Sequence record: PP430152.1
Direction: 5' to 3' (one strand)
Source: Enterobacteria phage FtMidnight
Length of the DNA stretch: 40,995 nt
The notes under the pieces are model-generated. The model was not told the DNA's origin. It ran no database searches and worked only from the letters and a program-made list of their open reading frames with translations. This document shows positions 35,704-36,363 of the stretch, in pieces. Numbering within the stretch: the first letter of the stretch is position 1; each line of letters opens with the position of its first letter. Position numbers and translations under genes: made by a program.

Positions 35704-36363
35704 ATGAACGAACACAACGAAACCCAAGCAACCGAAACCGCCGCGCCTGAAGCTGAAGCGGTTGAAATGCAATGGCTTGAACCGTCCAATGTGGGAAGCG
35801 AGTACCGGGCGCACCTTGCAGCAATGGAACCAACAAGCCGCTTGCCTATTGATAAAGCTTTCGGTCTTCCGGCTGGCTTTAATGTGGGCTTGTTGCGTGA
35901 AATTGCTGAAGACGTTAGGGGAAGGAAGATTGTTGTCATTGAACACGGTGAACACGGCTTTGAAATTCGCCGCTTGCCTGACAATGCGAATGTAAGGCTT
36001 TTTTACAAAACTATTGGTTTGAAGCAAGGTGATAAAATTGAACTTGGCGATAAAAAAGAACTTCTTGAAAAAGTGCTTTCTGAATTTTTGGTTGAAGACG
36101 TTGAAAAAATTTCAGCTTATGACCCCAAAGCCGTTGAAGGCCGTTCACTTGGTTTGATTACTTACAGCTACCTTCACCGCCGCCTTGCAAACCTTGCATC
36201 TTTCAAAAGCGCCGATGTTGGAGCAACAAAGGCACTGAAGGCGGTGATTCAGGAAGCCGAACAAGCCGGGTATCTTGCCAAGCTTTCAACTGAAGATTCA
36301 AAAGACTTGCTAGAAACAACCGCCGCTGTTTATCGAATCAATAAAAGTGCAATTGAAGCTTGA
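35704..36363 (+). CDS. hypothetical protein carrying a C-terminal domain paralogous to the primase-helicase C-terminus (putative origin-binding / replication regulator)
   Basis: 219 aa; C-terminal LITYSYLHRRLANLASFKSADVGATKALKAV aligns with primase KIIPYSFLHRRLARIATFRKDRIGATNAIKRA (about 40 percent identity by eye); acidic N-terminus. Confidence 0.5.
   Translation: MNEHNETQATETAAPEAEAVEMQWLEPSNVGSEYRAHLAAMEPTSRLPIDKAFGLPAGFNVGLLREIAEDVRGRKIVVIEHGEHGFEIRRLPDNANVRLFYKTIGLKQGDKIELGDKKELLEKVLSEFLVEDVEKISAYDPKAVEGRSLGLITYSYLHRRLANLASFKSADVGATKALKAVIQEAEQAGYLAKLSTEDSKDLLETTAAVYRINKSAIEA

Follow-up and report, generated by a model that had tools for sequence, protein, structure and literature searches.

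Enterobacteria phage FtMidnight is a siphovirus dependent on the F-pilus, with kin among the type-IV-pilus phages of Pseudomonas, Xylella, and Stenotrophomonas; published work on this phage covers its tail genes only (bioRxiv 10.1101/2023.03.19.532758). Here, we analyze the complete FtMidnight genome (PP430152.1; 40,995 bases, referred to as the window) with a focus on gene product 37 (gp37), a protein encoded inside the replication gene block that carries a free copy of the C-terminal domain of the phage's own primase-helicase and co-varies with it. The open reading frame (ORF) at 35704-36363 (+ strand) has an ATG start with an AGGA 8 nucleotides (nt) upstream and encodes 219 amino acids (aa); its product is 100% identical to the GenBank entry "hypothetical protein FtMidnight_37." As a whole, gp37 is acidic (pI 5.3) and is a full-length member of phrog_29311, a family of unknown function (E 4.9e-20; residues 17-212 against profile positions 22-226 of 235). 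Its N-terminal domain (35770-36018, + strand; aa ~23-105) has the predicted order α-β-α-β-β-α, while its C-terminal domain (36046-36354, + strand; aa ~115-217) comprises three helices and a winged helix (WH).

The primase-helicase gene (31866-34202, + strand) lies 1.5 kb upstream of gp37, which is a separate ORF. Its 778-aa product combines an archaeo-eukaryotic primase (AEP) PrimPol domain, an NrS-1-type helix bundle, a DUF3987 (MCM-related) helicase, and a C-terminal WH, with Pfam matches to NrS1-1_pol-like_HBD and DUF3987 and a PHROG match to phrog_3022 ("DNA primase"; E 1.9e-286). The C-terminal domain (33876-34199, + strand; aa 671-778) again consists of three helices and a WH, is the parent copy of the module shared with gp37, and is almost invariant among phages of different hosts. 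DUF3987 helicases are MCM related and end in a winged helix-turn-helix domain (Kazlauskas et al. 2016, PMC4889955), and helicase activity has been proven for one DUF3987 protein (PMC11724360).

The initial annotation had noted that the last ~70 aa of gp37 closely resemble the end of the primase-helicase, and this was borne out. BLASTP aligned gp37 residues 125-216 with primase residues 681-773 at 30% identity over 93 aa (E 2e-9), and hhalign of the two family alignments returned a probability of 98.4% over 99 columns (E 6e-15; gp37 115-213 versus primase 671-770). The pairwise alignment was significant against shuffled controls, as no shuffle reached the observed score: the Smith-Waterman score of 105 compares with 36.6 ± 5.1 for shuffled gp37 (z 13.3; 0/1000), and the C-terminal domains alone gave a z of 16.9 (0/2000). 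The earlier figure of about 40% identity holds for the core, YSYLHRRLA...GATKALK (~42%), but identity falls to ~35% across the last 66 aa and to the 30% given above over the longer BLASTP alignment. Profile matches run in both directions, with gp37 matching phrog_3022 at profile positions 687-775 and primase residues 670-768 matching phrog_29311, the gp37 family. The alignment is colinear, with no rearrangement, through to both C-termini. The best-conserved parts common to both families are α2 and the start of α3 (YSYLHRRLA and GAT.A[IL]K), and the core residues of the gp37 domain are invariant across its family. The C-terminal domain of gp37 is therefore a homolog of the final ~100 aa of DUF3987 helicases, and as gp37 has no ATPase domain, the module is not joined to a P-loop/AAA+ helicase core.

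Structure prediction agreed with the assignment of a winged helix. The AlphaFold model of gp37, built from an 11-sequence alignment (mean predicted local distance difference test score [pLDDT], 83), shows two domains. The C-terminal domain (residues 117-217) was modeled at a pLDDT of ~90 as three helices followed by β1 (151-153), α2 (154-161), α3 (174-188), β2 (191-193), a wing helix (196-203), and β3 (209-212); it has the α1-β1-α2-α3-β2-wing-β3 topology of winged helix-turn-helix domains and is structurally similar to known WH domains. The model of primase residues 321-778 is fair for residues 580-778, with the C-terminal domain at a pLDDT of 70-90 and its secondary-structure elements ordered as in gp37; the two models thus support the earlier proposal that the primase-helicase ends in a WH. 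Sequence searches of Pfam, NCBIfam, and the PDB with gp37, its halves, and the alignment of the C-terminal domains retrieved nothing significant, the nearest being a faint match to MCM5_C (E 0.16). The two copies were also compared in charge. The helicase WH has a net charge of +6 to +8 and a pI of about 10 (for the FtMidnight WH core, +8 and 10.4), and the gp37 WH has a net charge of +1 in FtMidnight and −2 in Pseudomonas phage Epa40. Within the recognition helix, gp37 has lost an R and the second K (IKRALK to LKAVIQ).

The free copy and the helicase tail co-evolve. In six phages, the gp37 WH tended to match its own primase best, and the true pairing topped all 720 possible pairings by both identity and BLOSUM score. 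Extra pairs were drawn from viral and metagenome contigs, for a total of 17 phage/metagenome pairs; a metagenome scan contributed just one of them, and exact-protein look-ups supplied further pairs. In this set, the sum of cognate identities was 498, versus 443.7 ± 9.9 for permuted pairings (z 5.5), a value reached by none of 200,000 permutations, and the signal persisted after double-centring to remove row and column effects. Amino acid composition was considered as the source of the co-variation and rejected, because a reduced alphabet (K/R, D/E, I/L/V/M, S/T, and F/Y/W merged) still gave a z of 5.1. By segment, the signal was concentrated in β1-α2-loop (z 4.6), with a smaller contribution from the preceding helices (z 2.9); no cognate-specific signal was found in the α3-β2 segment, which holds the recognition helix (z 0.6). 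One α2 position is occupied by H, Q, or N, and the residue agrees in 15/17 pairs; all four H-H pairs are among these, even though only 7/141 primases have H at this position. A search for primase positions co-varying with the H/Q column was uninformative with only seven H sequences, and scanning for DNA motifs that follow the H/Q/N state showed no clear pattern.

Recent gene conversion was likewise rejected as the cause, because cognate copies share a nucleotide identity of only 0.5-0.63 within the patch and use different synonymous codons; old, short gene-conversion tracts may have contributed. We conclude, on the strength of these sequence comparisons, that the match between the free copy and the helicase tail is maintained by selection, which implies a shared or mutual partner. 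Because both copies co-evolve, the free copy is probably tied functionally to the primase-helicase.

Among close relatives, gp37 is unusually variable. When window positions 35704-36363 were compared with the corresponding genes of two FtMidnight-like genomes (L008, 5001-5660; L009, 5001-5663), gp37 proved to be the most diverged gene of the region (78.5 to 80% aa identity), versus 97.7 to 97.9% for the primase and 89 to 100% for its neighbors (97 to 100% for most of them). Synonymous and nonsynonymous substitution rates are both elevated (dS, 0.32; dN, 0.12 to 0.145). The differences cluster in residues 101-180, which span the linker and the first half of the WH; dN/dS there is ~0.6, compared with 0.06 for the whole primase gene. 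The free WH evolves much faster than the helicase WH. Such divergence, together with an acidic protein, an early-type promoter, and the tracking of the cognate helicase surface, could be expected of an early decoy, that is, a mimic of the helicase tail that absorbs a host factor (e.g., a defense sensor or inhibitor) aimed at the helicase C-terminal domain. We consider this highly improbable: the gene sits in the core replication block with conserved synteny, and no partner is known. Moreover, a dN/dS that stays under 1, together with the elevated dS, is better explained by recombination with a diverged lineage than by positive selection. The pattern looks like exchange with such a lineage combined with relaxed or diversifying constraint and is no proof of positive selection.

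Full-length homologs of gp37 were found in 10 phage records, all annotated as hypothetical, including Variovorax phage VCLv11, Pseudomonas phages Epa40 and Epa41, Brenneria phage BREN6, Rhodobacter phages RcTitan and RcSpartan, and Klebsiella phage Kmi2C. Most relatives that share the primase-helicase (~75% identity) gave no match in the search for gp37 homologs. One of the related phages, PaMx42, carries a 90-aa gene, gp42 (phrog_10287; L007, 9137-9406), at the locus equivalent to gp37, and hhalign of this protein with the N-terminal domain of the gp37 family returned a probability of 86.7% (E 4.4e-6; 35% identity over 55 columns). This short form, ~90 aa consisting of the N-terminal domain alone, occupies the same position in 88 phage records. 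Because the N-terminal half of gp37 matches a stand-alone protein encoded at the same position, gp37 is, judged from these matches, a fusion of a conserved small protein with a copy of the helicase tail, a composition absent from the initial annotation. As a separate observation, PaMx42 gp42 weakly matches Pfam DUF7303 (E 0.001), and each related locus that was examined encodes DUF7303 proteins a few kb downstream of its gp37 homolog. In FtMidnight, the 199-aa ORF at 38810-39409 is probably such a protein, judged solely from its size and position.

A profile search of 1.8 billion representative sequences retrieved 668 relatives at an E of ≤0.001. Among the best 150 of these 668, about 100 were of the two-domain gp37 type; in the typing set, which also included the homologs from phage records, the two-domain type accounted for 102/163 sequences. 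The rest of these were fragments and DUF3987 helicases, with or without a primase domain, that matched through their C-termini. In a neighbor-joining tree, the helicase-type winged helices group into a single clade from which gp37-type sequences are absent, which fits one ancient duplication as the origin of the free copy. Two further proteins, P0210 (113 aa) and P0186 (139 aa), contain little beyond the WH; the second half of P0210 is helicase-like, and P0186 has a different short N-terminus. The WH module may thus have been detached or re-fused more than once, or, alternatively, these two proteins may be gene-call fragments.

The predominance of the short form among relatives and the faster evolution of the free WH would also be expected if the WH copy were a decaying, functionless duplicate and only the N-terminal domain mattered. 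We regard this as barely credible, since the two-domain form is intact in about 100 clusters at 50% identity and in phages of alpha-, beta-, and gammaproteobacteria, and since the domain is confidently modeled (pLDDT ~90), retains invariant core residues, and co-evolves with the helicase, which implies selection.

Upstream, gp37 is preceded by a conserved AT-rich module, after which it is the first gene. A terminator-like hairpin with a T-run (35140-35171, + strand) closes the upstream operon, and an equivalent hairpin lies at the same place in Epa40, VCLv11, Kmi2C, and PaMx42. Next comes an AT-rich noncoding region (35168-35631; ~29% G+C versus 46% for the genome), a candidate origin or regulatory module that is 90% identical in the close relative L008. 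Positions 35071-35757 are the sole stretch of the genome with 300-nt windows above 66% A+T, and a local minimum of the cumulative GC skew lies near 35750. Two boxes on the − strand, TATCAATGACTTA at 35193-35205 (TAAGTCATTGATA on the + strand) and AATCAAAGACTTA at 35280-35292, are exact matches to WATCAANNNNTTR, which we take to be the consensus of integration host factor (IHF). Exact matches to WATCAANNNNTTR number 7 in the genome versus 2.6 expected, with these two boxes among them, and the same two are the only exact copies of TAAGTYNTTGA in the genome. In related loci, the box usually takes the form (A/T)ATCAA(C/T)GACTTA.

The AT core (35405-35465) is made of T-tracts and TTATATT-like units spaced about 9 to 10 nt apart. 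It is the top-conserved block of an eight-phage DNA alignment, lies inside the AT-richest 150 nt (16% G+C), and could be an unwinding element or curved DNA. On its far side are two degenerate inverted copies of the box (35466-35489, − strand; TAAAGTATTGA and AAAGTAATTGA), each with two mismatches and not significant alone; the right-hand inverted box is exact or nearly exact in Epa40, VCLv11, LPPA15, and four further related loci (L012, L016, L026, and L033). Three tandem copies of TTACTAT (35578-35598, + strand) lie 34 to 54 nt upstream of the −35 hexamer of the gp37 promoter and belong to a group of seven copies within 35183-35598. This heptamer occurs 10 times in the genome versus 1.7 expected and is specific to the FtMidnight lineage, with 6/7 of the copies in the AT-rich region kept in L008.

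The order of these blocks is conserved. In the eight-phage alignment, the terminator is followed by the box TAAGTCnTTGAT, the AT core with its TTATATT-like units, the inverted box copy, CTTCnATCCGTAnA, a TTGACA-17-TAnnnT promoter, and a ribosome-binding site. Across 22 related loci, a minus-strand IHF-consensus site lies ~300 nt upstream of the gene, the 150-nt stretch richest in AT spans about −210 to −60, a second IHF-like site on the plus strand lies near −132, and a promoter lies near −60. In many relatives, the boxes to the left and right of the AT core have opposite orientations and conserved spacing. The module also occurs in PaMx42 and LPPA15, phages in which the first gene has no WH. 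These patterns suggest that host IHF organizes an AT-rich element in phages of alpha-, beta-, and gammaproteobacteria, and the module could be an IHF-assisted origin or, equally, an IHF-assisted promoter.

Several records start no more than about 240 nt upstream of the gene (L015, 1-160; L028, 1-203; L029, 1-156; PP836134.1; ON189043.1; and MZ501266.1), and the three metagenome contigs among them (L015, L028, and L029) break in (TA)n runs of the AT core at differing positions. A physical genome end (cos) in the region upstream of gp37 was considered but judged less likely than an assembly artifact or an arbitrary start, because the break points differ; the terminase genes are also 5 kb away.

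According to the initial annotation, the helicase tail and the gp37 WH bind the same DNA repeats of the AT-rich region, taken as the origin, where gp37 acts as a competitor or co-initiator. The best precedent comes from the Rep and PriRep5 proteins of Staphylococcus aureus pathogenicity islands (SaPIs), self-loading helicases whose C-terminal WH domain binds iterons on either side of an AT-rich origin that lies immediately downstream of rep (PMC9371898; PDB entries 7OLA and 7PDS). FtMidnight resembles this system in having a primase-helicase with a C-terminal WH, an AT-rich element downstream, and oppositely oriented flanking boxes, and the primase domains are related (residues 5-245 of the FtMidnight protein match PriRep5 of SaPI5, PDB entry 7OLA, with an E of 3.5e-34). 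A shared DNA target is also compatible with the WH fold itself, the strongly basic helicase WH (pI about 10), the inverted boxes flanking the AT core with conserved spacing, the seven TTACTAT copies, the conservation of α2 and the start of α3 between the families, and the co-evolution of the two copies. This model is still a serious rival, but we consider it unlikely that both proteins recognize the same repeats. The α3-β2 segment carries no cognate signal (z 0.6), the basic residues of α3 are lost in gp37, and its WH is nearly neutral (+1, or −2 in Epa40). At the conserved inverted boxes, the sequence is an exact fit to the host IHF consensus; the same boxes are found in phages without a free WH, and the search made revealed no DNA motif that varies with the H/Q/N state of α2. 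Finally, neither sequence nor Foldseek searches matched the C-terminal domain of SaPI Rep, and the origin is itself only a candidate. The systems differ further in that SaPIs have no free paralog of the WH domain, the FtMidnight boxes fit the IHF consensus, and the helicase gene and the AT-rich element can lie 1 to 7 kb apart, with variable genes in between.

As had been proposed, gp37 has its own promoter directly after the AT-rich region. This σ70-type promoter-like site (TTGACA-17-TAAAGT, 35632-35660, + strand) lies between the AT-rich region and the gene, and its position is conserved in related phages, with GCTTGACAnG and a −10-like hexamer kept at about −60 in most related loci. The next promoter-like site (TTGACA-17-TATTAT, 36360-36388, + strand) overlaps the gp37 stop codon, which suggests that gp37 transcription is separable from that of the following genes. 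A conserved σ70 promoter with gp37 as its first gene, tandem TTACTAT copies 34 to 54 nt upstream of its −35 hexamer, and the recurrence of TTGACA-17-TAnnnT-type sites at 34274, 36360, and 37245 might indicate that gp37 is a transcription regulator of its own or other early/middle promoters (e.g., via TTACTAT) and that its likeness to the helicase tail is a relic. We judge this improbable, as co-evolution with the cognate helicase domain is unexpected for an independent regulator. In addition, gp37 is acidic with a variable, poorly basic recognition helix, TTACTAT is limited to the FtMidnight lineage while the protein family is broad, and most relatives manage with the N-terminal domain alone.

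As an observation on the wider region, strong σ70-type promoter-like sites on the + strand (34274-34302, 35632-35660, 36360-36388, and 37245-37273) share the pattern TTGAC[AG]-17-TA(T/A)(T/A)(A/G)T with 10 to 11 of 12 matches. They head successive short + strand gene groups, some overlapping the end of the preceding gene, which suggests many small early transcription units served by host RNA polymerase. No Rfam families or tRNAs were found in the window.

Taken together, we favor, at a rough probability of 0.4, the reading in which gp37 serves the primase-helicase as an accessory factor at the start of replication, with its WH engaging the same lineage-specific partner as the helicase tail. 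That partner is somewhat more likely to be a protein surface than specific DNA bases, because the gp37 WH has lost most of its positive charge and α3 shows no co-evolution signal. Candidates would be the helicase ring or lid (the docking place of such tails in MCM-, ORC-, and SaPI Rep-type machines), another replisome protein, or a host protein. Through this contact, the WH would hold the N-terminal domain on the helicase, at or close to the AT-rich element, and thereby either aid or restrain loading. The earlier proposal of a replication-control module thus stands in part: co-evolution and position argue for a replication-linked accessory role, whereas the α3 result (z 0.6), the WH charge of +1, and the fit of the boxes to the IHF consensus argue against shared DNA sites. 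It is possible, though doubtful, that gp37 is more specifically a separately encoded, co-evolving mimic of the helicase C-terminal WH and, as such, a kind of replication-control protein not described before. It would dock by its α2 face on the site of the helicase tail, either on the helicase ring or on a host partner, and so carry a second domain to that place, gating helicase loading at an IHF-organized origin or shielding the helicase from a host factor.

Several observations weigh against an accessory factor with a protein partner. Co-evolution is explained equally well by a common DNA target, a common host protein, or binding to the helicase, and the free WH is mildly basic on family average (mean charge +3) and may bind DNA. 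Mosaic genomes exist, so strict pairing is not required: L012 combines a VCLv11-type primase tail (118/119 residues identical) with an Epa40-type gp37 homolog (110/112), L013 and L014 share a gp37 homolog while their primases differ, and the α2 match is broken in L014 and L024. The ATPase core in the model of primase residues 321-778 is poor (pLDDT <50), and no fold or family could be assigned to the N-terminal domain of gp37 by the searches run. The link found to SaPI-type machines lies in the primase domain, with the 7OLA match covering primase residues 5-245. A profile of the C-terminal domains retrieved nothing from the PDB, and Foldseek with the low-confidence primase model returned only weak matches to ORC1/MCM lid and WH regions (E > 0.1) and none to the C-terminal domain of SaPI Rep.

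Neighboring and related genes offer further points of comparison. A small helix-turn-helix protein (31625-31876) is encoded directly upstream of the primase-helicase gene, overlapping its start, and a helix-turn-helix gene is found in the same place in Epa40, BREN6, and metagenome loci; this protein adds to the candidate DNA-binding partners in initiation or regulation. One primase-helicase homolog from a metagenome representative (P0246, 1122 aa) contains an intein, with Hint and LAGLIDADG homing-endonuclease domains, after the helix-bundle domain.

Second proteins that share the C-terminal module of an initiator are a known theme. Phage phiX174 A*, T7 gp4B, and R6K pi-35 are shorter in-frame proteins that retain the C-terminal part of an initiator or helicase with identical sequence and can modulate replication. 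Like them, gp37 carries the C-terminal module of a helicase without its N-terminal catalytic part. Unlike them, it is not an in-frame isoform from an internal start within the initiator gene but a separate gene with its own promoter, ~30% identical, fused to another domain, and anciently diverged. A second comparison is Cnr of satellite phage P4, which acts through the C-terminal DNA-binding domain of the alpha primase-helicase. As with gp37, a small protein encoded beside a primase-helicase gene could tune initiation via the C-terminal domain of the initiator; Cnr, however, is not known to be a paralog of that domain, and we claim no homology. Cnr has been described as a small copy-number regulator (PMC8628076). 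With the DUF3987/MCM-related (superfamily 6 [SF6]) helicases of phages and mobile elements (Kazlauskas et al. 2016, PMC4889955), gp37 shares the C-terminal WH domain, but its copy is detached from the ATPase, fused to an unrelated small N-terminal domain, faster evolving, and stripped of most of its positive charge. What is new is a separately encoded, fused, and co-evolving paralog.

In the literature searched, no accessory factors of DUF3987/MCM-like primase-helicases are described, and we found no study of origins or of a gp37-type protein in this phage group. How such primase-helicases of phages and mobile elements find and open an origin is largely obscure, and gp37 addresses this gap. 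A free copy that co-evolves with the helicase tail provides a genetic handle, as it marks the α2 face of the tail as a functional interface and directs attention to individual residues such as H158, S155, and N163. The module of IHF site, AT core, IHF site, and promoter offers a defined candidate-origin fragment across a large group of phages infecting Pseudomonas, Xanthomonas, Stenotrophomonas, Burkholderia, Rhodobacter, and enterobacteria, several of which are under study for therapy. For phrog_29311 and phrog_10287, families so far listed as being of unknown function, these results provide a first structural and evolutionary annotation.

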